From Candidatus Saccharimonadota bacterium (lineage in GTDB: Archaea > Nanohalarchaeota > Nanosalinia > Nanosalinales > Nanosalinaceae), in the NCBI GenBank assembly GCA_001761425.1, contig CP012986.1, positions 420,001 through 452,000 of the forward strand: a DNA stretch of 32,000 bases, read 5' to 3'. The translations under genes and the position numbers were made by a program. Of this stretch, positions 1 through 30,064 are shown piece by piece; the first letter of the stretch is position 1; each line of letters starts with the position of its first letter. Under the pieces are notes generated by a model that ran no database searches, was not told where the DNA came from, and was given only the letters and a program-made list of their open reading frames with translations.

Positions 1-253
1 TCCTGGCTTCTCCTGATTCTTTCGGTTCGACTGTGATTTCTTCCTGTACGTCTATGATAGATTGGAGGTCTTCATCGGGCTGTATTGTGTAGGTGGTGGT
101 CTGGTTGCCTGTGTTTCTGATATCGGCAGTGTATATCTGGGTATCTCCTTTGAAGATCACGCTCAGTGATGGTATGTCGCTGTTGACGCTGAGGCCTGCA
201 CCTGAGCTTGCAAGCAGTAGTAAGAGGCCTGTGATCACTATTTTCTTTTTCAT
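1..253 (-). CDS. Secreted protein, 5' part only (84 codons, continues beyond window start)
   Basis: Manual reverse translation from ATG at 253..251 gives MKKKIVITGLLLLLASSGAGLSVNSDIPSLSVIFKGDTQIYTADIRNTGNQTTTYTIQPDEDLQSIIDVQEEITVEPKESGEAR. The basic n-region plus hydrophobic core is a Sec-type signal peptide. The mature part resembles the CARDB/NEW3-type beta-sandwich segments in the membrane-proximal part of the giant protein. The start overlaps the giant-gene stop as ATGA. It is absent from the ORF track because it is open at the window edge. Confidence 0.75.
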   Translation of the reverse strand, partial: MKKKIVITGLLLLLASSGAGLSVNSDIPSLSVIFKGDTQIYTADIRNTGNQTTTYTIQPDEDLQSIIDVQEEITVEPKESGEAR

Positions 254-3200
254 TTTATATCCATCTCGTCTTTGAGGCTGTCGATGTACATGTTTGCCAT
301 TTTGAATCTTCCTTCCTTGAGTTTGTTCTCCGCGAGCTGAAGTTCTAGGTCTTTGTCCCTTGTGTCCTGTCCCTGTTCTTCTCTTCTCTTGAGTTCCTGT
401 TTGAGTTTGTCAACTTCTTCTGAGAGGTTGTGGTATTTTTCCATTTCTTCGTCTGGTATTTTGTGTGGGTTGTGGTATGTAGGCCTGAAATCTACGAACC
501 ATGGCTCTCCGTCGTTGTAGTTTGAGTTCTGGATCATTCCTGTTCCTACGTCTTCGCTTGAGATTCTCTTGGCGAATTCCTGGCCGTATTTTTTCTCTAC
601 ACGGTTTATGTCTTCCATGGATTTGGTTTGCATCTGTATTTCTGTCATGATGTTTCCGGAGATTGCTTGTTTGAAGTCTGCTGTGACTTGTGATGCCATC
701 ATTAGGCCTATGCCCCATTTTCTGAATTCTCTTGCTCCTTTTTCGAGTGCTTCGTATCCTCCTTGTCCTCCGTATTCTTCTAGGAGTCTGTGGACTTCGT
801 CGAATACGATTAGCATCTCTAGGTCTGGGCTTTCTTCCCATTCTTTGTCGAAGATTTGATCGATTATGTTTCTTACTGCTCCGTCGAATTCTTCTGTCGT
901 TAACTGGTTTAGTGTGAATACTGTGATTTCTCCGTCGTTCTGAAGGTCTTCGAAGTTGATTTCAGGGTTTTCTGAGCTGATTTCCTTGATGACGCCTCTG
1001 TATGGATGTGCGTCTTCCTGTGCGTCCATTTCGAACCTGTCGTAGTGTTTCTCCAGGTCATCGTCCTTGAGTTCTTTCACGAATCCTGTCCACTGTGCTG
1101 TTGGGTCGAAGACGATGACCGGTACATCATTTTCTAGAGCTTCCTCTGCGATGACGTTGGCTGTTACAGATTTACCTGATCCTGTGGATCCTGACACGAT
1201 TGCGTGTGTTGTGAGGTCGCTTGGATCGATGAATGCATCTTTCTCTGTCTCTGCGATCTTTCCGACCCAGTAGTTGTCTTCTTCCTCCGGTGGAAGCCTG
1301 TCGTAGTCCACTGGGAAGACATAGCGTGCCTCTTCCTCCTTCCTGATCCAGTAGTACTGGTAGCCTTTCCAGCCGACGATACTGATCAGGATTACAGCAA
1401 GTATCAGGATCGTTGCCCTGGTCTTGAACGGGGTCCAGAACCTTTCCTCGATTACTACCGTTGCCGAATCAACTACTGTCTGGTTCTTAGCGTCCGCCAC
1501 CGTTTGAATGTAATAGCTGCCTGAAGGGATCTCCTGTGTTGAAAGCTCTCTCTGCATGGAAGTGGCTTCTTCTATACTGACAGAATCATTCAGTTCTCTT
1601 ATCACCTTGTCAGTATCGCTCTCCCTGAAGTAATGTGTGAAGTTTATCTCTACAGGAGTTTCCATAGTGATCTGGCTCACACGGGTTTCAAAGCTGAAGT
1701 TAGAGCCAGGCTCTACATTCTTCGTAAGTGACTTCACGTTTAGATCGAAGCCATCTATACCTTCTCTAGCCACAAGGATCGACTGCGAACTGTTCACGGT
1801 GGTATTGCCGTACTCGGCTACAATCTGGCCTGAATACGTCTTGATCTCTGCATCTTCAGGGATAACAGCCCTTAACTGGGTTATAACTGTCGAGTTAGCC
1901 GACACATTGATTTCAGTGTTATCAGGTCCAAGGAGCTCACTTATCTCGCCTTGGATCGACATATCAAGTTCTATACTTTCCTCCCTGTTGTTATCTATCT
2001 CAAGCAGGAAAGTTCTCTCCTCGCCACGGAACATGATAGGCCTGAAAATCCTTGGTGAGAGAACAAACGGCTCGGTAGCTATGTCTGACTTGTTCTCCTG
2101 CTCGGACTGGTTGCTGTCCTGACCGGTATTTGGAAGGCCTCCGCCTGTTGAGCCGCCGTTTTCATCCTGCTGTTCTTCGCCTCCTTGCTGATTCTGGTTG
2201 TTATCTCCATTGTTTCCGCCGTCATTGTTTTGAGGTGTGTAGAGTCTTTCAACGATGTAGGAGGAGGTACTGTTGGTTGAGGCCTGAACAACGTTTTCGC
2301 TCATGTTTACGGAGGAATTGAGCTGGTTCCATTCTGAGGTACTGCAGTTGCTGACATCGTCGTATTTACACTTGAATATCCTGAGGTTGTCCTCTTCTTC
2401 CTCGTCGAAGTCTTCGGTCTTCGAGTAGTTGAGCTGTACAGAGGCCTCTCCGAAGCTCATGTTGCTGTCGATGGAGACTCCTGTGAACGATCTGTTTGTA
2501 GTATCTTCCGGATGCTCAAACTCAACTGATTCTCCTGAGTCTACAGGCGAGACATTGACAGGATCAGATATGTCGTCTTCGACACTCGAGTTCACGAATT
2601 CGATATTGTGCACTGGCTCGTTTGTCTCCTCAGGCCTGTCAGGCTGAACATCCATGTTCACATCGTAACTCCTGTTCTGAACTTCTAGATCGTATTCTTC
2701 GCCGGTCGATTCCTCGATCAAGGTAGTATTTGATGAAGGCCTCTCGAACTTGAAATCAGTGTTCACACCGTCCATAGAGCCGGTGAAGTTTACGAATGGA
2801 GCAACAGATACAGGCAATTTTACCTCTCTTACATTGCCGTTTACATCCTGTAGGCCGACGACTACATCGTAGTCTCCGTCCCTGCCTGTTTCAGTCAGGT
2901 TTCCTGTGTAGAGGCCTTCACTCTGTTTGTTCATTGAAATGTTTTCTACTTCTGTGTCGTTCTCGAGGTAGATTCCTGTGGCGGAGACATTGTTGATTCC
3001 GACGTTGTCAGCGGCTTTTACACTGAGACTGGCGTTTTCTCCCTGGTTGACATTGTCGCCGTTTTTCGAAACTATGAACGGAGCTGTGACATCTCTGTAC
3101 TTGAGGCCTTTCCTGTCTTTGATCTCCAGGTTGTCTTTGAGGGCTGTAAGCTCGTAGCTTACGTTAACAGGGTTTTGATCGATGCCTGGTGCTTCACAGT

Positions 3201-6200
3201 TGATCTTCCAGAGGCCTGAACTGTTTGTGTAGGTGGAGTTCGTGTTTGAGCAGGTTTTTCCTTCAATTGAGGCCTTCCATTCTGAATCGTTGATCTGCCG
3301 TGTGTTGTTGTATGTGATGTTGGCGTAGGCCTGTACTGTGTCTCCTGCGGTGATGTTTTTCTTTCCGTTCTCTGCTGTGATGTTTTTGATATCCATTACG
3401 ATGTTTCTGACGTTAAGTGTTGTGTTCAGAGTCTCCAGTTTCTCGTTTTCTGGGTTGAAGAACGTTACTGTGCTGTTGTAGGTTCCTGGATCTGAACTGT
3501 TGAATCCTAGTTCTATATTTTTTAGTTCCTGTGTCTCTACGGTGCTTGCGGAGACAGTGATATTTTTCTGTATATCGAGTAGATCTGAGTTTTGTCCCTC
3601 GTAGATCTGGAGGAATAGTTCGCTTGTTTTGTTGTTGCTTACTGTGGCTGTATCGAATGTTCCGTAGGTTTCAGCTGCGACTGTTGTGTTGATGTACTCT
3701 GGGCTTATTGAGAAGTTCGTGGAGTTCGCTTCTCCGTCTGGGGAGATTTCCTCTCTATCGGTATTACCTCCGAGATCTTCTCCTGCTACGCTCTTTCTGC
3801 CTCTGCCTGTGTTAACGTTTAGGGTCTTGAATCTGTATTCTGAGCTTAGGTTGTAGAATCTGGACTGCTCTATACCAAGTTTGAAGTCGTAGGCTCCTGC
3901 TTCAGGTGGGAAGAAGCTCAAGTTAGCGCCTCCGTTTTCTCCTGTGTCAACGGAAGTCAGTTTGTTGACTTCGTCGAGGCCTACAAGCGTAGAGACGTTC
4001 TCTCCGGTTCTGTTGTGTTTGAAAGTCCATTCTATTTCTCCGACGTTTGAACCACATCTCTTCCTGTATTCGGAGATATTGTACTGTTTAAGCTCCCAGA
4101 GGTCTGTTGAACTGTATTTTTCAGTGTAGCTACAGGCCTGGGAGCTGTTTATCTCATCGTTGAAGCTTAAGTTGAACGGTAGTTCGCTCTGGGTCCAGAA
4201 GCTGACCAGTTCTGCTTCATCGAATGTTTTTGTATCTCCGCTGAATGCTTCGTAAGGCCTTCTGATCTTCACTGTATCGTTTACTGTCATGTTCGTGATG
4301 TTGGCAAGTAATGCGTTTCCGCCGAATACTCCTGATGTTCTGTTGCCTTCTACTTTGTCATCGAATCCTGGTTTTTCGCCGACGTATGTGCCGTTTGCCA
4401 GGCATGATCCGCTTTCGACACAGCTTTCATAGTCGTTGTTTACTGGAGCGGTCTCGAAACCTGTCTCTCTGTCCTCGTTACCTGATCCGAGAAGCTCACG
4501 GCTCATAAGCTCCTTCCTGTCTTCAAGGTCGGTATCTTTAACCACGATGCTCTCAACTGTGATTTCTCCGGAAGTGTTTACTCTGAGGCCTTTTACCGGT
4601 CCGTCTTTGAATTCTACTTCTTTCTCTGCGGATTGTTCTGTCGCTATGTTGTTCCAGCTTCCGTTTCTTCTGTAGGAGAGGTTCCAGCTTCCAGAGCTGT
4701 TTGTTTTGATCAGGAGTTTCTCTCTGTCTTCTAGGGATGTGTTGGTTTCTGCAAGGCTTTCATTTATTTCAAGGCCTTGTTCAGTGCTGTTGATTGTTCC
4801 GTTTGTTGTCCATTCTTCCGTGCTGAGGTTGATACTGTAATCTGGTTTTTTCTGTCCGTATCCCAGGTTGAAGCTGTAGTCATTGATCCCTCTGTCGGTG
4901 AAGGCCTCCCGTATTCTCGGTGTGATCTCTATGCCTGTGCTGTTGGAGAAGTTGAAGGCCTGTGTTTCCTCCGTCTGGTTCCAGAATGGTTCTATACCTG
5001 TTCTTATCTCGAGTTGTTTTTCTGTGTAGTTTGAGTCGAAGTAGTTGTCTGCTGAGGCTTTTACCGAGATGTTTTCGAGGCCTATTTCTGTACTGTTTTC
5101 TGGGTTCCAGGTGACTTTGCATTCTCCTGTTGTCTCTGTGTTGTTTGTCTGGCATTTTCCGATGCTTCTGTCCTTGAACTTGAAGTAGGCGGTCGCGTTC
5201 TCTACTGAGAGGCCTCTGTTTGTTACTTTTGCTGTTATCTCTGTATCTGTTGGTTCGCTGAGGTTGTCTCTGTATATTGTTTTGTCGCTGATATCTGTTA
5301 TCTCTGTGTTCAGTGTTCCGCCTACAAACACATTGTTCGTGATATTTGTGTTTGTATTATTGTAGTAGAGTGTCGAGTTGTCCTTGATCTCGGCTTTTAT
5401 CGTGTAGTCTCCGATAGTGGTGTTCTCTGTGTTCCAGGAGACGTTGTACCATCCATCAGGTCCTGTGGTATCGTTTCTCCAGGCCTCTGTGCTGTTGTCC
5501 TCGTATTTCCTGTAAAGCTGTACAGGGTAATCTTCTATACCTGTGGAGGTATTTTTATCCGCTACTCTGAGTGTCAGGTTGACGATGTCATCTTTGGAGT
5601 ATCTTCCGGAACCGTTGAAGCTGAGTTCGCTCCATCCGTAGATCGTCAGGTTGTTCCTGGCTCTGTCAGGTGTGTATTCTCCTTTCTCAGCTGTAGTGTT
5701 CAACTGGTAAGGGCCTAGGCCTAGTCCGTCGGTGTTCCAGAGGCCTTTCTCTCCTGTGCCGTTTGGATCTACTGTCTGGCCGTTGTGTATCCATTTGATT
5801 GTTGCTGATGTTTCGTTGTATGCATCTTTGACTCGCGCAAGTAGCTCCTGTTCGCCGTATCTGTGGACGATTTCTTCAGGTTTCTGTACTGAGATGTTTA
5901 GCTTCTCCGTCAGTTCCACATCTGACTGCTCCTCTGAGTTCTTTACTGGGAGGTACCATGTTCCTGTTCTGTTTTCTGTGATATCTGTCTTTAGGGTGTG
6001 GGTTCCGACATAGTCTTCATAATCTGTATGCCATTTTATCGAGCATGTGCCTTTTGTATCTGTAAGACTTGAGTTGATGAAGTCTCCTTCGTCGTAGAGG
6101 TTACAGCTGTAATCACTTACTTTACTGTTGTTTCTAGTGTTTACTACCTCTGCCTCCGCTGTTACAGTCGAGTTTTTCCTTTCTGTAGTTGAAGGCGTTA

Positions 6201-21200: not shown

Positions 21201-24200
21201 CTGTAGGAAGATTCAGGACCACACTATCCGTTGCCTGGCCTGAGGTCTGTCTGCTCTCAATTTTCTGCCATCCGGAACCGTTATCCGCCCACAAGGTAGC
21301 GTTCACTTCGTCTCCTTCGTCATCGGTGAATGTCGCAGAGATCTCGAATTCTGTCCCCCAGGGGCCTGAGGAAGGATCAGCACTTACATCTTCTACATCT
21401 GGCGCGATATTCGTTATACCGCCGATCCTGTAATCTGTAACGTTGTGAGAGGCCTTTGAATTACCGATCTCCGGTTGAATTAATCTGAACTCCTCTATGT
21501 TTCCATCGCTTCCATATGCTTTGCATACAGACCAGTTTCTCTCATCTCCTGATACGTTCTTGAACTCTTCACAGCCAGCTTTTTCTGGAGTTATACCTGT
21601 GTAAGTGCCGTTATCGTTCCAGTCCACTTCAAGGAAAGCATCCTCTACAATCCTAGAGCCGTTGACAGGGATGTGAACTGTTATGTTTTCAAATCTGGTA
21701 TCTGTCTTTTCTGTCGTCCTTGATACAGTTACGTTTCTCTCAGCCGGTGAAGTGCCGCTCAGATCTCCTTTCGTCACATTTACAGGTGAGGCCTCCTTGG
21801 TGTTATCATACCAGATATAGTCAGAAGACCTTGGCCTGGCAAACTCGAATCTCCAGAATGCCTCGCTGTCCGGAAGCAGTATTGAAGGCCCTCCATCGTT
21901 CTTGAACTCTCTACCGTTGAACACGACTTTCTGGCCGTCAGCAACGTTTTCTTCCGCCCAGATTCTGTTAATCTTCATTGACTCCGCAGGCGTTTTTGTG
22001 TAGTTAATTCTGTCTGCTTCATACATTATCATGTCTTCACTGCTGAAGCCTTCGGTCTCTGCCCATCTTGTGATCCCGCTCTCATAGTCATAAGTCCTGG
22101 AAACGTTGTAACTGTAACTGACCTCAGGATCAGAGACCCTGACAAGGCCTCCTGAATCAGAGCTAAATGTAAAAGGTACATCACAGGACTGGCTCTCACA
22201 GTTCGAAAGCACGTTATTGAATTCATCCGTCAAGGCCTGACCGTTCACAATTGAGGAACCTATGAAAAGGCCTGAGCCAGTCCATTCATCTCCGTTTCCG
22301 CCTATATCTATTCCAAGGTTCTGGGGGAGGTTGTAGAAGTTCAGGACACTGCTCCCGGATGTCGAGATACCGATCTCATCTCCTTCAGCATCACGTATAT
22401 CTCCTCTCTCAAGCTCTTCAACGCCGTTAGATCTCTGGTACTGTTCTATTACCTGTCCGCTGGAGTTCATTAAGGTAAGGCCTCCATTACCAAGGCCTGC
22501 GAGTACTTCAGGTCCCGGAGACTTCGAGATATTACCTGATTCAAGACTTTTCACTTCATCGCCAAGACTCTGGTTCCACAGCACCGTCAGGTTGCTGTCA
22601 AGCGCTATAACGTTTCCAGAGTCCGTACCTGTGATTATCTCATCGGAGGAACTTTCCTGTATATCCTCTAGAGTAGTGGATCTGAACCAAGAGGAACCGT
22701 CAACAGGGAAGCTCTCGATCAAGTTTCCTGTAGAATCAATGACCTCAATACTGTCTCTGGTGCCGACAACAACCTCATTACCCGTACTGCCAGGGATCAC
22801 GTTCCCTATATCCACGGAAGAAGTCCTCACATCCGTGCTGTAGTTCCAGAGCTGGTTTCCACTGCTGTCAAGGGCCACAATAACTGAAGGATAACGGGAA
22901 ACGACGATCTCATCACCTACTGTAGAACCGAAGAACTCAACACGTGTCATAAGACCTCCGGAAAGCTTCTCATACCCGTTACTGTACACGTAGGAATCAG
23001 CTCCTGAGTTCTCATCTACGAGAACGTTAAAGGCCTCCGAAGAACTGTTCTCCAGGAAGTAAGTGATGTTTTCATCCTCTGCCAGATCATCGCCGTCAAC
23101 AAGAGTCCTTACAGTATCGTAGGCCAGGCTCGTGTTACTCCAGACCCGGGCGTCCGCACCTGAGGCCTTATCTGTAAACCTGTCCGTACTGGATGTCTCC
23201 AGGCCTGAGGAAGGATCAAGGCCCAGGTAGTAAGAGGTTTCACCGCAGTTCTCACAGCTCAGTGTAGCGTTATCCGAGTTCAGGTCGTTTTCGTCTACCT
23301 GTATCTCTGTCAACGAGTAATTGATAGGTCTTTCCTCAGCTCGGATTTTGTATTCTCCTTCCAGACTGTTTCCTCCACTGTAAGAGTCTCCCTGTGTATC
23401 GTTGTCGTACAGGATGTTGTAACTGTCTATACTGGATAAGGTGATGTTTGTGTTTCCATCAATATCCGAGCTGTTTACTCTTGTGTATGCGGTCTCAGAT
23501 TTTAGGGATGTGTTCGTCCAGACCCTTGCCATGTAGTCGTTTCCGATAAGCTCTTCTCCTGAGCCATTGTTGTAGTACGAGTGACCGCTACTTCCGTCTT
23601 CGGTCAGCAGACGGTAGTTTTTAGAATCAGAACAGCTTTCACAGCCGAACGAGATATTATTTCCTGTTTCAAGGGCCGAGTCCGGTACTGAGGCCTCAGT
23701 CCAGTCGTATTCCAGGGATGAGTTAGTGGTTACGTTTACCATGTAATCATAGGGTACTTCTACCTGCTGGGTTCCGTTAAGAAACTCTGAGTAGGCTCCG
23801 CCTGTGGAATCGTCGCCTCCCAGTTCGTAGTAGTCGGTAGAGTTACAGCTATCACAGTTGAATAATATCTGGTCTTCGCTAAACTGGCTTGGAGGAACAT
23901 CTGCACTCGCTGTTGTAAAGGAATCGTTGCAGGAGACGATATCCGTAGTATTCATTTCGTACGTTTCATCATCTACTCCTACACCGGTAAACTGGAGGCC
24001 TGAAGGATCTCCCACAGCACAGACTGGGGCCTCTAATTCTGCCTTTTCAGCCTCAAAGCTGGAGACATCTAATGCAGAAAGATCAAATATAGGAGATCTG
24101 GATTCAGAGTCGTTACACCCAACACAGGCAGAGTCATCGACACCAGAATCATGAATCGATCTGGTATCAACGCTGGAGGCCTTGATCTTTGACTTGTCAA

Positions 24201-25971
24201 AGTAATGTCTTTTTCCGCCAGCTTCGACGTATGGGTCTCCTGTCTTCTCACCCTGGTAGGACATGGCAGCTTTCACGAAAACCTGTTCTGCCTTGATATC
24301 CTGAGGTACATTATAGTGAAGGTTGAAAACAGCTTCGGAAGAATCATCAAGAAGCCTCGAACCCACAGATACACCCTTATCGTCTCTGAACTCTTCGATA
24401 TTGTCTACATCGATCTTGCTGCCATCAATCCTGTAATCAGTACTGTTGAGACTTACGACAATATCTGAAGAAGAACCTGAAAGCCGATTAAGCTCCGCAC
24501 CAACGTAAACGGAACTGTTCTCAGAAACATCAAAACCACCGGTGTACAAGGCCTCAGAACTCCCGATGTCTAAAACGCCGTCAGCCTCGCCATCAGTAGA
24601 GTTGTTGAACTCTGGATTGGATACAGCATCAATTTCTCCCGGCTTCACGGAGTAACTGTTTCCTCCTATACTTAGCTCAAGATTTTCAGAAGTAGAGGAA
24701 CGACGGGCTAGGGGAAGCCTCAAATAAACTTTTTCCGCCTCGAAATCTGGTTTGAAGGCCTCGAAGGTCACATTCTCCTGTCCGATCGCTGCCATATCAG
24801 AGATATTTTCAGATGCCCTGCTGTACTCGAAGGTTCCTGAGGCATCGATCTCTGACTCTTCTACATCATAGATGGTATCGTTTAGCTCGAACTTTAGGTC
24901 GGCGGACCTGTTGTAGTAGTTCAAACCGGTTTCCACGTAGAATGTTCCTGAATCGTTCGTAACGTTGTAAGGTGTACTGAAAACTGTCTCATTTGAACAA
25001 CCGACACATGCAAGGCCTTCTGGATCAGCGTCATCTTCCTGATAGCTTATTCTCTCCGAGGAAAGTTCTCCTGTAGCTATATCGAAATAGCTCTCACCTG
25101 TTTTGTCCCAGATCAGGCCTCCATCACTGGAGAGAAGAACAACAGAGTTTTCTGTAGCAGCTAATACTTCCTCTTCCTCCGTTTCTACGTCTTCACTACC
25201 GCTCTCGATGTCATTCACCTGGTCTCCAGTGCTGTAGTTCCAGAGTGAGTTACCCGAGGAGTCAAAGGCCTTCACCTCTTCGTTCTGGTAGGTGAGTACT
25301 TCCAGGAGATTATCTGTTGAGATATCGGCAAAAAGGACTCCGTTTCCTGTCAGGTTAAGGAGAGATTCGTCCTCGATTGAACTGAGCTTTACTGAGAAGC
25401 TGTCCACTTCTGAGTTGTTAGGTATCTGGAAATCCTTTTTCACGGAACTGTCAAGATCAAGAACCTCTCCTTCACTTCCAGGCTCACCTTCACCTGGATC
25501 ACACCTCCAGAAACTGTCCGAGAAACTGCATAGATCGTAGTTGATTAGAGGCTGCGCAATATCAAGGCCTGTGTTCTTTTGCTCCGCTTTACCTGGGTTG
25601 AAGACCGATATCTCCGTATCTCCAGCGGTAATATTGATTTTGTACCGGTCAAAACTGTTTACATCAAAAACAATCCTGCCCAGAGAATTTTCATCTCCGT
25701 TCCAGTCGACAGCGATAGTATCCCCGTTCTGCGTGGACGTTTTCTCAACCCATGAACCTGAAACCTGGTAATCAACTCTCCTGAAACCCAGAGCTTCACT
25801 ACCGTTAAGAACTTCGAACTCTATCTCGCCCTGGTGACTTGAATTAAATTCAACAGTCCAGTTGCCGTTAGCCTGCTCATTCTCTACTCCAAGATCGTTA
25901 GAAGTATCCAAAATGCTTAGAGATTGGCCAGCCACAGCTCCGACTAAAAGCAATAATACGGCTGAAGCCAA
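250..25971 (-). CDS. Giant (8,573 aa) type-I membrane surface protein: signal peptide, mosaic adhesin-like ectodomain, one TM helix, cytoplasmic HerA/FtsK-like ATPase
   Basis: This is a single open frame of 8,573 codons in the ORF track, which cannot arise by chance. The domain grammar is coherent along the whole length. The start is TTG at 25971..25969, the first start-type codon after the in-frame TAG at 26031..26029. The stop is TGA at 252..250. The protein is very acidic and rich in N-x-S/T sequons outside the membrane and poor in them inside. Confidence 0.95.
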   Translation of the reverse strand: MASAVLLLLVGAVAGQSLSILDTSNDLGVENEQANGNWTVEFNSSHQGEIEFEVLNGSEALGFRRVDYQVSGSWVEKTSTQNGDTIAVDWNGDENSLGRIVFDVNSFDRYKINITAGDTEISVFNPGKAEQKNTGLDIAQPLINYDLCSFSDSFWRCDPGEGEPGSEGEVLDLDSSVKKDFQIPNNSEVDSFSVKLSSIEDESLLNLTGNGVLFADISTDNLLEVLTYQNEEVKAFDSSGNSLWNYSTGDQVNDIESGSEDVETEEEEVLAATENSVVLLSSDGGLIWDKTGESYFDIATGELSSERISYQEDDADPEGLACVGCSNETVFSTPYNVTNDSGTFYVETGLNYYNRSADLKFELNDTIYDVEESEIDASGTFEYSRASENISDMAAIGQENVTFEAFKPDFEAEKVYLRLPLARRSSTSENLELSIGGNSYSVKPGEIDAVSNPEFNNSTDGEADGVLDIGSSEALYTGGFDVSENSSVYVGAELNRLSGSSSDIVVSLNSTDYRIDGSKIDVDNIEEFRDDKGVSVGSRLLDDSSEAVFNLHYNVPQDIKAEQVFVKAAMSYQGEKTGDPYVEAGGKRHYFDKSKIKASSVDTRSIHDSGVDDSACVGCNDSESRSPIFDLSALDVSSFEAEKAELEAPVCAVGDPSGLQFTGVGVDDETYEMNTTDIVSCNDSFTTASADVPPSQFSEDQILFNCDSCNSTDYYELGGDDSTGGAYSEFLNGTQQVEVPYDYMVNVTTNSSLEYDWTEASVPDSALETGNNISFGCESCSDSKNYRLLTEDGSSGHSYYNNGSGEELIGNDYMARVWTNTSLKSETAYTRVNSSDIDGNTNITLSSIDSYNILYDNDTQGDSYSGGNSLEGEYKIRAEERPINYSLTEIQVDENDLNSDNATLSCENCGETSYYLGLDPSSGLETSSTDRFTDKASGADARVWSNTSLAYDTVRTLVDGDDLAEDENITYFLENSSSEAFNVLVDENSGADSYVYSNGYEKLSGGLMTRVEFFGSTVGDEIVVSRYPSVIVALDSSGNQLWNYSTDVRTSSVDIGNVIPGSTGNEVVVGTRDSIEVIDSTGNLIESFPVDGSSWFRSTTLEDIQESSSDEIITGTDSGNVIALDSNLTVLWNQSLGDEVKSLESGNISKSPGPEVLAGLGNGGLTLMNSSGQVIEQYQRSNGVEELERGDIRDAEGDEIGISTSGSSVLNFYNLPQNLGIDIGGNGDEWTGSGLFIGSSIVNGQALTDEFNNVLSNCESQSCDVPFTFSSDSGGLVRVSDPEVSYSYNVSRTYDYESGITRWAETEGFSSEDMIMYEADRINYTKTPAESMKINRIWAEENVADGQKVVFNGREFKNDGGPSILLPDSEAFWRFEFARPRSSDYIWYDNTKEASPVNVTKGDLSGTSPAERNVTVSRTTEKTDTRFENITVHIPVNGSRIVEDAFLEVDWNDNGTYTGITPEKAGCEEFKNVSGDERNWSVCKAYGSDGNIEEFRLIQPEIGNSKASHNVTDYRIGGITNIAPDVEDVSADPSSGPWGTEFEISATFTDDEGDEVNATLWADNGSGWQKIESRQTSGQATDSVVLNLPTDKSWTGTVEYKVEYYDYDESGRIHGSENSSTQSFAVSPHPTETTVTSGSGLELDRTGEKGLISAQVNDTEDNQVLTSSNSNVFCSLYIDGSDYDIVNPNSSGYCNFQLSDLDMDLGNHSWSIQAFDPDNYYDLSSTDTENFTLLGNFSLDRNFPSTEVFKYGGLDHQYSSIQNGTLNYNYTNIRDDLGNPVNPSYDLSWPYIDNLPEGNISDSSKEGSFGIQETDPLGDSRLNITLEKENFNNETFVTNITILGLIQPSFSTSKATVFPEDDVVNLSAELESSDGTKIDDASVDFLTPSGYCRETYQDGNIYRCEYSPDSSLSSGTYNWSVDAERKNYRQEDANGQITIGTGIVADASIKPLTVYRYNGAEGPGQVEYNVTDIRDDSGPLDNVSYTFSLDDPDETGRVDSGGLAKNLSVAQNEDVGLVNAEIIIDKDGYKQFSYSTDVDVNGNINASLETRENDNLTATLEDMRGNDISVDQVSFNTPDGQCLEKYSEANQYFCEYNPSTDLSTGTYKWNISVQDSDYVYEQEKSANISVESQIEADVTLDNGPYFRFNGSEGTTTPKYSISNINSNGNNIDNVTYTVYLDGIKKKERTIDDTDTGSFDIPAASTIGEHEVKIVLEKNGYEDLTQTYTREVRGSLTTEIYETEDVYKNNSQTRGSYNLTTELKAKVKDQLGNNISDATVSFDTPSGNCNPSSTGSGNYSCTFDPDTLSSVGNRSWGLTASRSGYESTTTNAGQFFIKNVIRPEFISTGDEYFRDETGLLTTEAINPSGSNVDANIDASYYIDENKLGKDASTDSGRASLNWDPVCTRDPQEYTVDVNISSNDPRYEVYNNGDSGNIDLIADLLVEVSNPENSAESGINYQQGDDVALETDLNTSCGTDPNVSGQDIIWNASDKDTSKLISSGPSASWSIPESYTGETNISAYGDSYYYRGGLDTKKILIERVININVTEGLTDKTRTSGGNYDYNFAAEIVTGDGIDANESTIDETWSDFNITWKVDGNKVKEQSTDSQASANTTVNLGSQYKPGEHTVQAELENTSSINTTILQEKESKALDFIDEASVTLEDPAGGDIFYQDEIDLRSSINTATGNEDSMDINYNWQFRDNDTERVISSKRVSSWIVPSYAYGPGNISVVAKHPYLQTDSDKANVTSKRKTSIKAYDPYKYVEPNSSNPIRANISIPGIEDKSGYTVNYWIAGNSYTAETDGDGTATFYWDPSGFEKGAYDTGVNIEDAPGSYYETENPTQANKTLVIPDVLNISASYRDNNEENANGNNFDNLPNRAVYRNGGPWKNPEKLYVAGNVTTPFPDSDEKYEVENSTVKFWITGTSDDGQQITEKIGEDDVNLTEFENARNDNENTWWDEYLAHTSWNPRGEFPVGSYDLKINATHPEDGFEPDPVTRPLDVRGTLNITMNDPTAWEDTYQMDNFTFSATVEDMNGNEIPEEELDEIIWKLQEDGCANSNDDPAYGWGSGTFDWSSAISSGPKTGSLSSWIRMGNTGYYNIHGKELVWLNAEKEYFEVARNQYRRGFTGCSAVHHQEDGAKGNINGQFEGDREDRVGIQHDMRARIETEISAPTSLEGETGDKDIFNLTARFFEYNTTQSLPGRFDGIFHATCLNCSDSANKDLSQGDDYYRDQDVAKFQFNFSNEEYRENYTFKVWAEPGPNEEDWAREDPFATDNRKYTVYESLGSGEGDVNINGECEDGETVVSAPPDCGYDNLPDRYWVNESADSSMNQTQYDQFRDESSSLYEDDKAYYANHSAYSDEYAGGCNFDGIEDDKYEEPGVCPDYNNDASSPEINSVDANPNYFQPDTADVTFTAQVRDIDGNLDSVDLLDKDNNLVASMTTTSGTCTTYCTFSTTENIDNDGTYKIRASDTTSETDDTTSRSINVFEDTTVATIENLTIEGSDPRKKNQDLNVDINISGINVGNDPQSVESIIVDGKSVGSPSTSDNVQGWALYEATTVADSTSDQDVSDETITVNVTEKRASSFDEATATYTVDTSIPDVKNEQVTPSLVKNGDEVTFSADVTDNALDNTYVTREDTGNTVCSNSSFSNTGGDTYECTINAPDKTDTFNYRFHAIDGAENTNDTETVQLSVDSNHPEITGLSSDQTISPGETVTVSATVDDKEDHLDSSMLVTMKDFKNDSMNVVCDDSEFDGSCQVSPNASTQYLVYANDTLGNENLNFEQNYVEVTVDEFAPNVTLQNQDTNFSGTVTLDTEVTDSPPEVPNGDFEDGNSSQWTFTNTGQILQSSDYNYTCSSIYSQGTTTSGTYEIDPDGRGGNDPFNAYCEMNPNPNNPVESGGPVSDVYTFYYVQDGMNTSTVGQSNTCTGKGLELWTPRGPSEYDVGVNYIINQYGYSPSNWDAPGGPGPLGIHYPLDGEDGTTSADSPPEDFDAHKDYSLKSEDYGTDALGNDNLYGGGTNGWQNTIGESFWAASGVDAAEPSGDYDADTWLGWQNFDSSGYISDYNDLPNAGYSYDEYLCTAETSLSGGTASSSAQSYCTDDDGDGQTYCAFFDGGVYPSTTAQNNITGEKVNRIAGKSVDFRGDLFGDGDSMQVEDDQSKETYKQYGGEDDSRFHIKVWNSSGGLIKDEKGVWASHYLDDSGMANVTTGFKVPENADTITVQLDGGDMGGTASNAYDTYFDSINLGPSNLDSGSVQYAFSNSSGNYTSIGKGFANLPQTSGNEFSTNVDTTGLADGYYMLTVKASDTVSNDKVYEKEVKIDNEPPEIDFKEELYNEATITVDDGSRTKTIELSPGIDTYPVEFSGTSGSASLDINMASDSATGSAVIDSLTLKADDGAIIEEISTQGDWDRGNYQGLSTDRNANSGNLGLGKQDGSSGDRLVGFWRFDQDVSGSGGIVQDYSGEGNSATLYNGSEIVSKGIAETSAINLNGRNQSIEVSRSSDLNTSSLTFSTWFKLDRNLTCSSGNNWRSFAYKGSSSSGTDKGWDIVLEESGAVAFDVNGTRWWPHWADKRYGEQLGYPINDWRHYTFTYEESTGKMAFYRDGELIDYNYKDPGPIEHSADALKIGGATNEGCPDGRGYVPGSYDEVKVYNEAMSSSEIRNMYEKSNNRYTGEYQVSGLNLPEAVESISVETKNIQNGRLDGSKIFNISIIDELLNDNPSSYKYSIDGGSLSDLTENSNHSFSTAPVDTSKLNDGLTDLSVEASDTEGNPEQNTYQFFVDNTDPSISGLDSNISITNGNQVAGFSGTVDDDSLNASATNFTLINVSESGFEADIDEACSYTGSILECSASWDPSGFEAGNYSFKVYSEDTLENNALEFDLSEYVFLDRVSPNITDSSLNDTIVQSNQSLEVWAIAEDDYEVDQVTADGEDLSQNNYNWSGVIPVGDGDVNLTVTDLAGNTESYENLTYTIDDKRPSISGLGSNASNNFSRGDDTVRFEVESSDTYLRSVKLENRSTDGYAEMVNGSGSTWYLETRPEDLGLVEEEYNLTAKAVDKADNIEFDYYNLTVDNTAPSIKRVDLNDTVVQSNTDIEVNTTIDERSLGWANANSVNLTNDFGNYYTGVINVDNSTQNPVNVTAIDSADNFAYNDSTGYTIDDKRPSISEFVSNASFGVTRSDNPLQFNVSTSDEHLENVRIEGSKLSKGSPWELVDSPANLSCSEGVADSTCTLTAESIDEAGNARTQSLDLTIDDVRPEVGNISTNASIIRSGDKVNFTADVSDANIDSVTLRNSSEAKCSMEESSGSAYSCAVPVYNSSDFTVDAVDQAGNVNDSESIRVETDDTPPEFTSYGANASYNVSNSDSLLNFTAEVKDLRLESVELEENKMNNRSSLYSLTDTPSGLGCSSGGEFVCNLTFYAEDVPGNNETVEYQLNIDDVKPDVNSVEINDSIIQSNSTVKAKINVSGESDKTLAEVTAEDKGLSWNGSLWTNEIEVDNDEVVNVTAVDKAGNIGKENSTEYAIDDKAPETYSFTSNATYGVSRSDRPLRFNLTVTDDYLRNVTIWEKETNEQIQMENTEGDTYEINRTPGELGCVTEANREVCGLTVTAEDKADNYENNSVEVTIDDVDPEITDVSINDSDRVVKPSSDLEVNLTLIDDTETSITELTAENDSLSHLETDNSGANPESVWEGVVEIDNDSFVNVTAVDQAGNTDKNSEAEYTVDYDRPSILNLTSNSTNDVVRSDHTLNFTVNASDRYNLSSVKINGEPMNSTKSSIWYRVDQAGDLGCTEETVCDIEATATDQAGWTNETGYSLEIDNSKPDVGTLDALNASDGNPDAALGEWYLDWRLKNTTDQTDLSTTLYATNESYEGPAGNVTEIPQYNESSYRLVERPVYFNATNGTYTFISKVTDQADNTANTTYRLAITAQPPKIPFATASETRPEQNRESTQIRVNVTDTNEIAETELTIENTGETFTDLNLVQPNSGNQTGGIYATDYTPENSGYYNITVSATDGTQESRTESFGKVFKAIGKTEGKLEMNASRTEFNNITQNYTGKTDVNVTFENTGLATSYNTTIQQALAQQGIVTNSSDYSCGEIKNGSSCSTTISVNISSKASPGTRRVSEFGEWVNPDYSEEEISDTLDLEVKKNPVLKETGGLERTDIWWGESTELAEFDIYSFGNYDLENVEISRTKSPINGSDLLNENYYYVDGEGFNVPKGSTGYTTLETNGIENSGRFIAEFTATAQDNTNCGGEDCQDAKIVDVNVFKKADVELLNNSGQRYRGLLNLQSEVRDILDSNKKAFEEYHVALYDNGTKIGNVSTGGNELAELEWDAGNEELGPHNLTAKIQDKESENINATDSQESIEITLNDSLSVDREIDDRDMYWYDEQPDHNVSLNYTVTDLDGDRVENATVDLITNVTGNFETTRTCETNSSGQCSITWNTDVSNPVNATIRSKASKNQYFDNFTTSESIVEIKGGFSVDIRKPREGLIRENDTDLVRGSIQDLSATITDENGTEVTPNTVNWSINTSSGYSNIGSGKEDSWEVKSISTGIHRLNVSTEDSEGVETSDSKIVEVYDPVDININQVTPSTTERKNSTVTAEAEVVNTRNNSKVSDYSCNLYDEGDFINSSLTDTKGTCSIKWHTDYEDYVGTHTLKTDITENRTGTWYLPVKNSEEQSDVELTEKLNISVQKPEEIVHRYGEQELLARVKDAYNETSATIKWIHNGQTVDPNGTGEKGLWNTDGLGLGPYQLNTTAEKGEYTPDRARNNLTIYGWSELSFNGSGRYSKDDIVNLTLRVADKNTSTGIEDYPVQLYRKYEDNSTEAWRNDTTGPDGWYNVSWNTENTTIGDYTIKAEIKDNSTLYYNNTNTNITNNVFVGGTLNTEITDISDKTIYRDNLSEPTDTEITAKVTNRGLSVENATAYFKFKDRSIGKCQTNNTETTGECKVTWNPENSTEIGLENISVKASADNYFDSNYTEKQLEIRTGIEPFWNQTEETQAFNFSNSTGIEITPRIREAFTDRGINDYSFNLGYGQKKPDYSINLSTEEWTTNGTINSTEQGLEINESLAETNTSLEDREKLLIKTNSSGSWNLSYRRNGSWNNIATEQSAEKEVEFKDGPVKGLRVNTSGEITVESIVVKDTDLEDRKELMSRELLGSGNEDRETGFETAPVNNDYESCVESGSCLANGTYVGEKPGFDDKVEGNRTSGVFGGNALLANITNMTVNDTVKIRRPYEAFSGDTKTFDEAELVSFWTQSELPFNLSFNDEINSSQACSYTEKYSSTDLWELKQYNISEYRKRCGSNVGEIEWTFKHNRTGENVSTLVGLDEVNKLTSVDTGENGGANLSFFPPEAGAYDFKLGIEQSRFYNLSSEYRFKTLNVNTGRGRKSVAGEDLGGNTDREEISPDGEANSTNFSISPEYINTTVAAETYGTFDTATVSNNKTSELFLQIYEGQNSDLLDIQKNITVSASTVETQELKNIELGFNSSDPGTYNSTVTFFNPENEKLETLNTTLNVRNIVMDIKNITAENGKKNITAGDTVQAYANITYNNTRQINDSEWKASIEGKTCSNTNSTYTNSSGLWKINCEAPGIDQNPVNVSYELTALKDNLEIKDRKGLKYRDVTAPFIVSKNGDNVNQGENASLSVKAADNVGINNVSATGIYLENDTEVENISMNKQSEGLYTGNLTETGRDGDYDVVVGLQDVNGNVREVKLPVSVAPFVNFTGSMDGVNTDFKFERPSSNTTLIEESTGEEYDLEVQNRSYDVNMDVQPDRPEETNEPVHNIEFVNSSVEDDISDPVNVSPVDSGESVEFEHPEDTTNRSFTGVSIDSNMSFGEASVQLNYSKTEDFDEEEEDNLRIFKCKYDDVSNCSTSEWNQLNSSVNMSENVVQASTNSTSSYIVERLYTPQNNDGGNNGDNNQNQQGGEEQQDENGGSTGGGLPNTGQDSNQSEQENKSDIATEPFVLSPRIFRPIMFRGEERTFLLEIDNNREESIELDMSIQGEISELLGPDNTEINVSANSTVITQLRAVIPEDAEIKTYSGQIVAEYGNTTVNSSQSILVAREGIDGFDLNVKSLTKNVEPGSNFSFETRVSQITMETPVEINFTHYFRESDTDKVIRELNDSVSIEEATSMQRELSTQEIPSGSYYIQTVADAKNQTVVDSATVVIEERFWTPFKTRATILILAVILISIVGWKGYQYYWIRKEEEARYVFPVDYDRLPPEEEDNYWVGKIAETEKDAFIDPSDLTTHAIVSGSTGSGKSVTANVIAEEALENDVPVIVFDPTAQWTGFVKELKDDDLEKHYDRFEMDAQEDAHPYRGVIKEISSENPEINFEDLQNDGEITVFTLNQLTTEEFDGAVRNIIDQIFDKEWEESPDLEMLIVFDEVHRLLEEYGGQGGYEALEKGAREFRKWGIGLMMASQVTADFKQAISGNIMTEIQMQTKSMEDINRVEKKYGQEFAKRISSEDVGTGMIQNSNYNDGEPWFVDFRPTYHNPHKIPDEEMEKYHNLSEEVDKLKQELKRREEQGQDTRDKDLELQLAENKLKEGRFKMANMYIDSLKDEMDIK
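253..447 (-). other. Charged, probably coiled-coil C-terminal tail
   Basis: EEMEKYHNLSEEVDKLKQELKRREEQGQDTRDKDLELQLAENKLKEGRFKMANMYIDSLKDEMDIK has heptad-like spacing of hydrophobic residues and a high K/E/R content. Confidence 0.5.
445..1272 (-). other. Cytoplasmic HerA/DUF87-type (FtsK-HerA superfamily) P-loop ATPase domain
   Basis: Walker A is IVSGSTGSGKSV, with GSTGSGKS at 1168..1191. Walker B is MLIVFDEVH at 790..816. The HerA-like block REFRKWGIGLMMASQVTADFKQAISGNIMTEIQMQTKS lies at 619..732. Only about 50 residues separate the TM helix from Walker A. Confidence 0.8.
1345..1422 (-). other. Single transmembrane helix of giant protein
   Basis: The helix is TRATILILAVILISIVGWKGYQYYWI, flanked by FWTPFK outside and RKEEEAR inside. 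It is the only long hydrophobic stretch after the signal peptide. Confidence 0.85.
2085..2240 (-). other. Low-complexity N/Q/G/E-rich linker (stalk) in giant protein
   Basis: The sequence is TPQNNDGGNNGDNNQNQQGGEEQQDENGGSTGGGLPNTGQDSNQSEQENKSD. It lies between the distal ectodomain and two membrane-proximal CARDB-like domains. Confidence 0.8.
5000..7100 (-). repeat. About seven ~100-aa Ig-like (invasin/Big_1- or CarboxypepD_reg-like) modules, two alternating types
   Basis: The type-1 cores recur about every 600 nt: EEYHVALYDNGTKIGNVSTGGNELAELEWDAG..GPHNLTAKIQD, ENATVDLITNV..TCETNSSGQCSITWNTD, SDYSCNLYDEG..TDTKGTCSIKWHTD..GTHTLKTDI, EDYPVQLYRKY..TGPDGWYNVSWNTE..GDYTIKAEI and ENATAYFKFKDRSIGKCQTNNTETTGECKVTWNPE. 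A second module type is interleaved (..NWSINTSSGYSNIG.., ..IKWIHNGQTVDPNG..). Confidence 0.5.
8490..11632 (-). repeat. Array of 11 Ig-like beta-sandwich domains arranged as about 5.5 alternating A/B di-domain units
   Basis: Twelve proline linkers bound the domains: DNTDPSIS, LDRVSPNIT, IDDKRPSIS (x2), VDNTAPSIK, IDDVRPEVG, TDDTPPEFT, IDDVKPDVN, IDDKAPETY, IDDVDPEIT, VDYDRPSIL and IDNSKPDVG. Each domain ends in a D.AGN motif (TDLAGN, VDKADN, IDSADN, IDEAGN, VDQAGN, VDKAGN, EDKADN, TDQAGW). Type A has SNAS..V.RSD..L.F.V..SD..L..V plus an LGC..C pair. Type B has LND(T/S)..QSN...(E/K)V ... VNVTA.D.AGN. Confidence 0.7.
11965..12645 (-). other. LamG / concanavalin-A-like lectin jelly-roll domain (Laminin_G_3 type)
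   Basis: The sequence is LVGFWRFDQDVSGSGGIVQDYSGEGNSATLYNGSEIVSKGIAETSAINLNGRNQSIEVS...LTFSTWFKL...WRHYTFTYEESTGKMAFYRDGELI...LKIGGA...GSYDEVKVYNEAMSSSEI. This matches the canonical LamG_3 pattern: W.fd, D.SG.GN.g.l.g, ..l.f.G, ft.s.W.k, W.h...ty, l.fY.DG, iGg, G..DEv.vYn.alS..EI. Confidence 0.75.
13230..14495 (-). other. Jelly-roll/CBM-like region containing a fibrinogen- or collagen-NC1-like motif
   Basis: It opens with NGDFEDGNSSQWTF, the NG.FE.G...W opening typical of CBM4/9-type galactose-binding-like modules, and closes with DTYFDSINLGP. In between lies CSSIYSQGTTTSGTYEIDPDGRGGNDPFNAYCEMN (about 14300..14410). The assignment is by motif resemblance only. Confidence 0.35.
14500..15790 (-). 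repeat. Run of about five Ig-like beta-sandwich modules
   Basis: Modules are delimited by proline linkers (VDTSIPDV, VDSNHPEI, VDEFAPNV). Each has internal Cys pairs and a D.xGN-type motif near its end (IDGAENT, NDTLGNE). Confidence 0.45.
18950..20480 (-). repeat. About 2.5 copies of a ~197-aa two-domain beta-sandwich super-repeat with a conserved Cys pair
   Basis: The motif recurs with a period of about 590 nt: DASVDFLTPSGYCRETYQDGNIYRCEYSPDSSLSSGTYNW (20238..20337), VDQVSFNTPDGQCLEKYSEANQYFCEYNPSTDLSTGTYKW (19679..19765) and DATVSFDTPSGNCNPSSTGSGNYSCTFDPDTLSSVGNRSW (19061..19146). Confidence 0.55.
22325..22890 (-). other. Beta-propeller-like blades (PQQ/FG-GAP-like)
   Basis: The blade signatures are VALDSSGNQLWNYS, VIDSTGNLIESF, IALDSNLTVLWNQS and LMNSSGQVIEQY. 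Each is preceded by a G..E(V/I)(V/I).G strand (GNEVVVGT, SDEIITGT, GPEVLAGL, GDEIGIS). A related pair (AFDSSGNSLWNYS, LLSSDGGLIWDK) lies at about 25060..25280. Confidence 0.5.
22925..23870 (-). repeat. Tandem ~65-70 aa modules, several headed by a CxxC pair
   Basis: Three CxxC-headed copies are FNCDSCNSTDYYELGG..DYMVNVTTNSSL, FGCESCSDSKNYRLL..DYMARVWTNTSL and LSCENCGETSYYLGL..ADARVWSNTSL. Cys-less degenerate copies are interleaved (SIDSYNILYDNDTQGDSY..EYKIRAEE; AFNVLVDENSGADSYVY..LMTRVEF). Isolated related ACVGC motifs lie at about 24078..24132 and 24961..25020. Confidence 0.5.
25915..25971 (-). other. N-terminal signal peptide of giant protein
   Basis: MASAVLLLLVGAVAGQSLS has a hydrophobic core followed by small residues (AGQS). 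It lacks a basic n-region if TTG is the true start (see finding on start codon). Confidence 0.65.
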
Positions 25972-30038: not shown

Positions 30039-30064
30039 AGGCCTTTAACTGTTTTTTCAGGCCT
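30039..30064. terminator. Possible bidirectional terminator between convergent genes: two AGGCCT copies forming a 6-bp stem around a T6 run
   Basis: The sequence is AGGCCT(30039..30044)-ttaactgttttttc-AGGCCT(30059..30064). The hexamer is self-complementary, so the two copies can pair. T6 at 30052..30057 lies 21 nt after the plus-strand stop, and oligo-T is the usual archaeal termination signal. The second copy overlaps the RpoK stop codon. Confidence 0.35.

Follow-up and report, generated by a model that had tools for sequence, protein, structure and literature searches.

Giant surface proteins of the SPEARE type make up 2 to 4% of ~1-Mb genomes and are leading candidates for the seizure and exploitation of hosts by DPANN archaea, and their published annotations conflict: they have been presented both as a protease and endonuclease "spear" and as a type IV secretion "straw." Here, we examine the gene that occupies most of a 32,000-nucleotide (nt) window of the nanohaloarchaeal SG9 genome (contig CP012986.1, positions 420,001 to 452,000; nucleotide positions below are those of the window unless a locus is named). 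On its minus strand, a single stop-free frame extends from 25971 to 250, as a preliminary description made from the letters of the window had reported, with 8,573 codons counted from the first possible start, a TTG, and a TGA stop at 250-252; it is the only long frame there. The predicted product has a mass of 943 kDa and an isoelectric point of 4.1. We conclude that this open reading frame (ORF) is the published SG9 SPEARE 1 and, taking identity and mechanism as one reading, consider it probable that the protein is a type I membrane protein in which a host tether would be coupled to an ATP-driven, HerA-like translocase. The gene itself is real, intact, and already in the literature, and nothing new was discovered for the window; what we add are refinements, namely a predicted HerA-like motor, a fused and a free ATPase copy that appear to evolve in concert, a cytoplasmic coiled-coil partner, and a layout that recurs across DPANN archaea in proteins called at up to >15,000 amino acids (aa).

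The three neighboring genes to the right of the giant ORF match SG9 genes AQV86_02345, AQV86_02355, and AQV86_02360 of a 1,125,078-bp contig exactly, and the JGI gene call for the ORF itself is 8,573 aa long and lies immediately upstream of AQV86_02330. "Ca. Nanopetramus SG9 SPEARE 1" was described as a protein of 8,553 aa that ranked second in size among the archaeal proteins known at the time (Hamm et al. 2019, PMC6642349). Judged by its genome, position, and length, the giant ORF is this protein. The gene is thus already known, having been published in 2019, with its motor re-annotated as an ATPase in 2023. An exact look-up of the giant protein returned no match, probably because the TTG start was translated as leucine. 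Two locus tags in the figure legend of Hamm et al. (2019) are discrepant: AQV86_02330 is given there as a 3,315-aa protein, whereas the database entry of that name is a 625-aa ATPase, and the tag given for SPEARE 1, AQV86_04780, does not fit the neighborhood tags 02330 to 02360.

Further possible starts of the giant ORF lie at codons 7 (TTG), 13 (GTG), and 21 (TTG), the last of which yields the 8,553-aa product. A hydropathy scan of the whole protein reveals two hydrophobic segments only, a signal-like stretch at aa 1-23, presumed to be a putative Sec signal peptide, and a membrane helix at aa 8180-8206, which agrees with the earlier proposal of a membrane-anchored surface protein with a signal peptide. 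A start at codon 21, the one that gives the GenBank length of 8,553 aa, would drop the sole N-terminal hydrophobic segment (25909-25971, minus strand). The 8,573-aa start of the JGI call is more plausible because it retains this segment, and the GenBank start of SG9 SPEARE 1 probably cuts off the signal peptide. Two antisense ORFs within the giant gene (1637-2122, plus strand, 161 aa; 6128-6769, plus strand, 213 aa) are most likely chance frames. In a related JGI contig (locus L005), only small opposite-strand ORFs were called across the giant region, and the giant gene is not listed there.

The genome of SG9 was assembled from a metagenome, and the giant gene has a modular build; the preliminary description, which spoke of a repeat-rich assembly, had named a chimera of collapsed repeats and a pseudogene with frequent inactivating mutations as the outcomes that would speak against its account. 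We regard either as extremely improbable. An independent ENA assembly carries an intact 8,570-aa ortholog, called on a 415,898-bp contig in the same gene order, and the frame is open in the stretches compared from other assemblies (the last 3,333 codons in the ENA assembly and the first 3,292 codons in JGI and Logan assemblies). Amino acid identity to these related assemblies is 94 to 98%. The ratio of nonsynonymous to synonymous substitution rates (dN/dS) is 0.14-0.21 overall and <0.55 in each informative interval of ~300 codons, and the giant gene is therefore under purifying selection rather than in decay. Nor does the assembly merit the term repeat rich: the longest direct DNA repeat in the gene is 53 nt at 75% identity, accompanied by one trivial tandem repeat, so there is nothing to collapse at the DNA level, and the repeats found at the protein level by a tile-against-tile search are only 25 to 40% identical. 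GC content along the gene is even, at 0.45-0.48. Orthologs of 9,409 aa ("Ca. Nanohalococcus occultus," 948-kb contig) and 8,880 aa ("Ca. Nanohalovita haloferacivicina," 1.05-Mb contig) have been called in two other genera, and the last ~3,200 SG9 residues, ~2,800 of which belong to the ectodomain, are collinear with these orthologs on long CP-numbered contigs, with identities of 33 to 56% in the ectodomain and 75 to 86% in the ATPase. The giant gene is neither an artifact nor a pseudogene.

Within the ectodomain, one variable segment (aa 3001-3276) stands out when SG9 is compared with loci L005 and L006. Identity drops abruptly at its border, the preceding 100 codons are 100% identical, and synonymous sites within it are saturated. 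On this comparison, the segment looks like a cassette exchanged inside the ectodomain.

The C-terminal part of the protein carries the motor that had been noticed earlier. An AlphaFold2 model of aa 7950-8573 (70 homologs; mean pLDDT, 90) predicts two beta-sandwiches, a long membrane helix, a RecA-like ATPase core, and a C-terminal helical hairpin. The cytoplasmic P-loop ATPase retains intact Walker A and Walker B motifs, and GSTGSGKS and VFDEVH are invariant across the 70 homologs. The conserved cytoplasmic portion is 74 to 80% identical to nanohaloarchaeal homologs, and the ~73-codon tail behind the ATPase is kept in nearly all loci. On the outer side of the membrane, Foldseek relates the two sandwiches to tandem sandwiches such as those of RbmA and WxLIP. 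Two membrane-proximal domains are thus present in the model, as had been proposed, but they are generic immunoglobulin-like (Ig-like) domains rather than CARDB domains; neither CARDB nor carbohydrate-binding module (CBM) families matched at E ≤ 1 in dedicated tiles.

Every test of ATPase class points to HerA. In Pfam, DUF87 scores 45.4 bits (E = 1.4e-11) against a cut-off of 23.2 and HerA_C scores 27.6 bits against 22. Searches of the PDB with phmmer and with a profile retrieved HerA entries, eight of them by profile (E values of 1.6e-9 to 4e-5), followed by IcmO (2.5e-3) and FtsK (0.05), both by the P-loop only; beyond these two, VirB4 and VirD4 structures were absent from the PDB profile matches at E ≤ 10. 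Foldseek placed Sulfolobus HerA (4d2i) first (E = 2.8e-13), followed by SIR2-HerA, HerA-NurA, and DUF4297-HerA, with no VirB4 or VirD4 among the top 50, and PADLOC matched the ATPase to its HerA and mad8 models. On the basis of these sequence profiles and the modeled fold, we place the ATPase in the FtsK-HerA superfamily, within its HerA clade. It is no restriction enzyme, nor is it demonstrably VirB4 or TraG. The ResIII, DEAD, and type IV secretion system (T4SS) families match it in the Walker A-to-Walker B or P-loop stretch only. The top NCBIfam match, CedD, covers 55 aa around the P-loop with 42.3 bits against a cut-off of 600, and we reject CedD orthology as a P-loop match only. In the model, the membrane helix is separated from Walker A by only ~50 residues, which include two short strands, making the N-terminal barrel of canonical HerA unlikely. 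Membership of an anti-phage HerA defense system was also considered and rejected, given that no SIR2, DUF4297, or NurA-like effector partner is present and that the architecture is that of a surface protein.

The motor has a partner next door. The TGA stop of the giant overlaps the ATG of the following gene as ATGA (250-253), and this gene, AQV86_02330, encodes a stand-alone paralog, which has its own signal-like N terminus and combines a pair of Ig-like domains with a membrane helix and a HerA-like ATPase. It is 55% identical to the last ~613 aa of the giant over the shared module and 81% identical over the ATPase core. As a stand-alone copy of the same module adjoins it, the giant looks like a protein of the 625-aa type in which the signal peptide has been replaced by 7,900 adhesin residues and a linker. 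We also asked whether the low-molecular-weight "cytoplasmic" peptides of Hamm et al. might derive from the stand-alone paralog; this idea is weak, as in SG9 the two proteins have just 2 of 18 cytoplasmic tryptic peptides in common. Next come two further genes, one for an acidic 741-aa coiled-coil protein that has no membrane segment and is conserved at aa ~125-320 (SG9 locus L001, 11913-14138) and one for a 108-aa protein with a zinc-ribbon-like N terminus and a C-terminal membrane helix (L001, 14110-14436), which follows the coiled-coil gene only in Nanohaloarchaeota. Nanohalococcus and Nanohalovita share this order of four genes, the fourth product being 108 to 115 aa long. No T4SS parts (channel, pilin, or analogs of VirB6, VirB8, VirB9, or VirB10) are encoded in the neighborhood, which consists of coiled-coil, zinc-ribbon-like, and housekeeping genes, and the locus contains no CedA-like gene.

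The arrangement extends well beyond Nanohaloarchaeota. The cytoplasmic module has 343 indexed relatives, including proteins of ~650 to 700 aa from Woesearchaeota, Aenigmarchaeota, and Nanoarchaeia at 45 to 55% identity, and context look-ups show a giant followed by a stand-alone ATPase in Nanohaloarchaeota, Woesearchaeota, and Nanoarchaeia. Homologous giants with the C-terminal module were called at 15,808 aa in Woesearchaeota Tobar13.5m-G65 and, among Nanoarchaeia, at 10,601 and 10,635 aa, each followed by a free 699-aa ATPase; these lengths are those of the gene calls, and the part read was the last 10 kb of each (loci L007, L009, and L010). At its called length, the woesearchaeotal protein would exceed the sizes quoted for halomucin and SVXNc_0300. 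GTDB species genomes contain >585 loci with the ATPase module, and in the 80 of these that were kept for locus-level counts (L011-L090), the ATPase nearly always ends the frame and is preceded by 1,800 to >3,600 codons, often up to the limit of the sequence retrieved. Another, free ATPase copy follows in 11 of the 80, and a coiled-coil gene lies downstream in ~75. A profile search of 1.84 billion representatives recovered 425 proteins at E ≤ 1e-30; the best 150 of these have a median length of 2,048 aa, 25 of them reach 4,000 aa or more and 3 reach 7,000 aa or more, and nearly all carry the module at the C terminus. C-terminal extensions of family members, examined for a fusion, have no similarity to the coiled-coil protein.

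A fused ATPase usually clusters with the free copy of its own genome, not by type (98% identity between copies in locus L013 and 93% in L007 and L008, besides 14 other tandem loci). This clustering suggests gene conversion between the tandem paralogs and is the pattern of concerted evolution that would be expected if the two copies co-assemble.

The remainder of the protein is a chain of modules, which we annotated using Pfam and NCBIfam scans of protein tiles, a tile-against-tile self-search, and internal hidden Markov models (HMMs); a whole-protein BLASTP self-comparison gave the diagonal alone. The positions proposed earlier for the propellers, Cys-x-x-Cys modules, Ig-like arrays, laminin-G domain, and stalk were nearly all right to within ~100 nt. 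Blades of a PQQ-like beta-propeller are recognized in a 251-aa tile (aa 1010-1260) by PQQ_2 (29.3 bits; cut-off, 27.6) and Beta-prop_CGLA (30.2 bits; cut-off, 26.8), with weak NCBIfam matches of the blades to BamB and PA5033. A second, N-side set reaches 16 bits with PQQ_2, below threshold, and since the two sets are homologous, the propeller sequence is interrupted by ~680 residues. Cys-x-x-Cys pairs occur at aa 322, 616, 706, 777, and 906. AlphaFold2 modeling of the distal tip (aa 200-1260) from a two-row alignment reached a pLDDT of 28. By internal profiles, the Ig-like domains fall into family A (~110 aa with a disulfide pair; 7 copies) and family B (Big_13 type; 15 copies), giving at least 22 repeat-defined domains in two families. 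The laminin-G domain is recognized by Laminin_G_3 at 64.3 bits against a gathering score of 27.6, covering profile positions 2-150 of 151. The region that had been called CBM-like (13.2-14.5 kb) matches no CBM family and instead contains a fibrinogen-like YCDxxxxGGGW motif, at which Pfam Fibrinogen_C remains below threshold; outside the motif, aa 3820-4460 match no PDB entry and no family.

Two compositional features agree with the predicted topology. The ectodomain contains 329 NxS/T sequons, a density of 4.0 per 100 aa where composition predicts 1.6, and all 80 cysteines, which form 40 consecutive pairs when listed in order, mostly 3 to 30 residues apart. Cysteine is absent from the 367-aa cytoplasmic part, in which there is a single sequon. 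In order, the giant comprises a signal-like N terminus, ~7,900 extracellular residues, the linker, a pair of Ig-like domains, a single membrane helix, the ATPase, and a hairpin. Scans of all tiles with Pfam and NCBIfam returned no peptidase, nuclease, or toxin families at E ≤ 0.01, in line with the earlier statement that protease and nuclease motifs are absent. Large parts of the ectodomain have no PDB or family match, and PDB sequence searches with three ectodomain tiles and with the 1,292-aa product of the gene to the right yielded no matches except one at the chance level (E = 0.68). For the tip (aa 1-1250), we found one close homolog (76%) and two weak ones, and for aa 3820-4700 a single match, in an index that seems to be without full-length giants, since the SG9 query's own protein was not returned.

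How might such a protein work? Host tethering coupled to an ATP-driven translocase is, by analogy, our best reading of its function. The ectodomain would serve as a tether of great length, binding glycans or proteins of the haloarchaeal host surface; glycan binding to a partner cell is plausible from the domains recognized, and the variability of the tip would point to host specificity. The ATPase domains, fused and stand-alone alike, would assemble, together with the coiled-coil protein, as a HerA-like ring under the symbiont membrane, and this ring would use ATP to drive a polymer across the membrane where symbiont and host are in contact. Our best guess for the cargo is host nucleic acid moving inward, with protein export as the main alternative; import of nucleic acid is favored by analogy with the paired CedB and CedD and with HerA rings that thread DNA. 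CedB and CedD, which are membrane bound and belong to the HerA/FtsK superfamily, are required for DNA import in Sulfolobales. Like the ATPase proposed here, they and VirD4/TrwB are membrane-bound FtsK-HerA-superfamily ATPases that work in pairs at cell-cell contacts. A bolder version, which we offer tentatively and think rather unlikely as it stands, is that the adhesin-ATPase, its paralog, and the coiled-coil protein constitute a DPANN-wide and so far unclassified cell-contact machine, neither a T4SS nor a Ced system, that imports host DNA or other polymers via a HerA-type ring covalently tied to host-binding tethers. If so, this machine, with a tether of hundreds of nanometers and an ectodomain that diversifies rapidly as it tracks hosts, would rank among the core devices of an episymbiotic lifestyle.

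Several observations weigh against a tether coupled to a translocase. A ring of single-pass subunits would provide only six membrane helices, and the operon encodes neither a polytopic channel (CedA-, VirB6-, or SecY-like) nor a pilin, so that the path of translocation is not evident. Similarity to CedD is confined to the P-loop stretch (42 bits against 600), and neither a gene for a CedA-type channel nor Ced pilin genes adjoin the giant. Detectable relatives are nearly lacking for the distal 1,250 residues and for the mid-ectodomain; with so few relatives there, and with the failure of AlphaFold2 on the tip, ligand binding is read from domain names. On the side of identity, accession AOV94740.1 for the giant protein was inferred from genome, position, and length.

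Some of these same observations would suit an account in which the motor serves the adhesin: a HerA-like ring and its coiled-coil partner would cluster, anchor, tension, or retract the tethers, or signal contact, and nothing would be translocated. The ATPase is covalently joined to an adhesin in hundreds of lineages, the operon has no channel component, the long cytoplasmic coiled-coil protein is the most constant partner, and a six-fold ring would bundle six tethers. Characterized HerA/FtsK-clade members, however, pass DNA or peptides through a central pore, and we know of no precedent for a HerA-type ring that acts on an extracellular adhesin; we consider this account possible but more probably wrong than right. 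The "straw" of La Cono et al. (2023, PMC10266531), in which the giant and the downstream ATPase are VirB4/TraG-family proteins of a T4SS-like apparatus that injects effectors into the host through or along an Ig stalk, draws on the shared FtsK-HerA superfamily, on two adjacent membrane ATPases reminiscent of VirB4 and VirD4, and on weak, subthreshold matches to TrwB_AAD_bind, T4SS-DNA_transf, TraC, and TraD. For TrwB_AAD_bind (cut-off, 20.5), the giant and the SG9 stand-alone paralog (P0036) score 16.6 to 17.8 bits, while the downstream ATPase SVXNc_0299 (P0027) lies just above the cut-off at 20.9; T4SS-DNA_transf gives 16.5 bits in the SG9 paralog, below its cut-off of 20.1, and both sets of matches are confined to the P-loop region. 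SVXNc_0299 was reported with the VirB4 N-terminal domain PF03135 (PMC10266531), and this claim was not reproduced here: PF03135 is not found at E ≤ 1 in either SVXNc_0299 or the SG9 paralog. Given also that all strong PDB and Foldseek matches are to HerA, with IcmO and FtsK aligning by the P-loop only, that no other T4SS component is encoded nearby, and that a chain of Ig domains is a rod and not a conduit, we judge the straw improbable. As a separate observation, the N-terminal part of both proteins matches Ig-like families (FixG_C in both; HYDIN/VesB-like in the SG9 paralog).

The original model (Hamm et al. 2019, PMC6642349), in which a serine protease opens the host S-layer, a toxin-like domain forms pores, and a "type III restriction enzyme" domain degrades imported DNA, has the merit of having been published for this family, whose laminin-G and adhesion domains are indeed present here, and ResIII does match the cytoplasmic domain at E = 7.9e-8 (aa ~8236-8400). 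This match, though, spans just Walker A to Walker B, where DUF87 and HerA score better on the same residues, and the tile scans described above returned none of the enzymatic or toxin families that the model calls for. La Cono et al. (2023, PMC10266531), who named SG9, likewise came to regard the cytoplasmic domain as an ATPase rather than a nuclease, found no protease, and noted a second ATPase gene directly downstream. For this protein, the protease and endonuclease model is largely refuted at the sequence level, and we rate it very unlikely.

SPEAREs are mostly extracellular, have a membrane helix near the C terminus and at least one laminin-G domain, and are most conserved in their cytoplasmic part; full-length synthesis was shown by proteomics for the homolog of "Ca. 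Nanohaloarchaeum antarcticus," the only protein for which a protease was claimed (PMC6642349). The giant shares with this family (NAR1_1133, 5,998 aa; SG9 SPEARE 1, 8,553 aa) a huge ectodomain with laminin-G and adhesion domains, a helix near the C terminus, and a conserved cytoplasmic P-loop domain, and we find in it the family's length, nanohaloarchaeal genome, topology, ResIII-matching intracellular part, and laminin-G and adhesion domains, whereas neither the "serine protease" nor the "restriction endonuclease" part of the name is borne out. The preliminary description had held that the motor sets this protein apart from SPEAREs. It does not, because the ATPase is the hallmark and most conserved feature of SPEAREs and the giant ORF is a founding member. 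SVXNc_0300 (9,409 aa, "Ca. Nanohalococcus occultus") and BNXNv_0298 (8,880 aa, "Ca. Nanohalovita haloferacivicina") (PMC10266531) are orthologs with shared gene order, relative to which the SG9 distal tip is nearly without detectable relatives in the indexed database; the "VirB4/TraG" label published for them is unsupported by our tests, which favor HerA. HerA translocases (4D2I, HerA-NurA, SIR2-HerA, and DUF4297-HerA) provide the best sequence, profile, and fold matches, with Walker motifs intact in the giant. Unlike these, the giant's ATPase is predicted to be anchored in the membrane by an N-terminal helix and fused to an ectodomain, and it lacks a nuclease or SIR2 partner. Halomucin of Haloquadratum walsbyi and giant bacterial Ig-repeat adhesins are of comparable size, acidic, repetitive, and extracellular, with a surface role. 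To our knowledge, they lack a C-terminal membrane helix and cytoplasmic ATPase, and the likeness is one of description only.

Table 1. Features of the giant gene (listed from its N terminus) and of neighboring genes, with window positions, strand, and supporting evidence or remarks
Feature	Position	Strand	Evidence or remark
Whole giant ORF	250..25971	-	8,573 codons from first TTG, 8,553 from codon-21 TTG
N-terminal hydrophobic segment, aa 1-23, M/L-ASAVLLLLVGAVAGQS	25903..25971	-	Hydropathy; kept in L005 and L006, both related assemblies
PQQ-like beta-propeller blades, N-side set, aa 224-342	24946..25302	-	Homologous to aa 1031-1224 (E 3e-7, 3e-6); internal blade HMM
Cys-x-x-Cys modules (~70-130 aa), aa 600-1012, between blade sets	22936..24174	-	Self-search, internal HMM; no known family
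PQQ/BamB-like beta-propeller blades, aa 1020-1224	22300..22914	-	Pfam above cut-offs
Four ~110-aa disulfide-containing Ig-like domains in ~200-aa units, family A, aa 1657-2371	18859..21003	-	Internal HMM E 1e-25 to 1e-45; weak Big_1; self-similarity
Two ~125-aa repeats, aa 2409-2747, family unknown	17731..18747	-	Self-search, internal HMM
Variable segment, aa 3001-3276	16144..16971	-	55-63% identical to closest related population, flanks 98-100%; comparison stops at aa 3276, where locus L005 ends
Three Big_13-type Ig-like domains, family B, aa 3383-3737	14761..15825	-	Internal HMM; homologous to aa 5187-5359
Fibrinogen-like YCDxxxxGGGW motif, aa 3856-3892	14296..14406	-	NCBIfam GGGWT_bact 35.8 bits vs cut-off 30
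Laminin-G/concanavalin-A-like lectin domain, aa 4494-4664	11980..12492	-	Pfam Laminin_G_3 E 1.9e-17
Twelve Big_13-type Ig-like domains, ~92-aa period, family B, aa 4767-5844	8440..11673	-	Pfam Big_13 33.3 bits, above cut-off; internal HMM; self-similarity
Three further family-A Ig-like domains, aa 6402-7026	4894..6768	-	Internal HMM, self-search; weak Big_1, DUF7382
Low-complexity acidic Gly/Asn/Gln-rich linker, aa 7915-7960	2092..2229	-	Exactly where homology to stand-alone 625-aa proteins starts
Two membrane-proximal Ig-like beta-sandwich domains, aa 7969-8068 and 8076-8174	1450..2067	-	AlphaFold2 pLDDT 90; Foldseek
Single transmembrane helix, aa 8180-8206, then conserved juxtamembrane motif RYxFPxDxxxLP	1354..1434	-	Hydropathy, homolog alignment, model
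Predicted cytoplasmic HerA-clade P-loop ATPase, aa 8234-8495	487..1272	-	Pfam DUF87, PDB searches, Foldseek, PADLOC
Walker A, GSTGSGKS	1168-1191	-	Within ATPase
Walker B, VFDEVHRL	784-807	-	Within ATPase
C-terminal helical hairpin or coiled coil, aa 8507-8573	253..453	-	Homolog alignment, model
Stand-alone 625-aa paralog AQV86_02330, own signal-like N terminus	1..253, continuing L001 10001-11878	-	Runs off window
AQV86_02345, divergently transcribed, 1,292 aa	26153-30031	+	Exact match to SG9 protein
AQV86_02355, PAC2 protein	30231-30995	-	Exact match to SG9 protein
AQV86_02360, aIF2-alpha	31165-31920	-	Exact match to SG9 protein

To the right of the giant gene, AQV86_02345, which adjoins it in related assemblies too, has no Pfam, NCBIfam, PADLOC, or PDB match. 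Its product has a signal-like N terminus, many paired cysteines, repeated helix motifs of the form RQG..I.SL..AY..TGN, and a C-terminal hydrophobic stretch, LPLIRIVALLSLLAVSGFVF, behind which lies a tail of ~100 aa. The rest of the right flank is ordinary archaeal housekeeping, and two small minus-strand ORFs between the annotated genes (30057-30224, 55 aa; 31002-31145, 47 aa) occupy the positions of genes that match RNA_pol_Rpb6 and Nop10p in L005.

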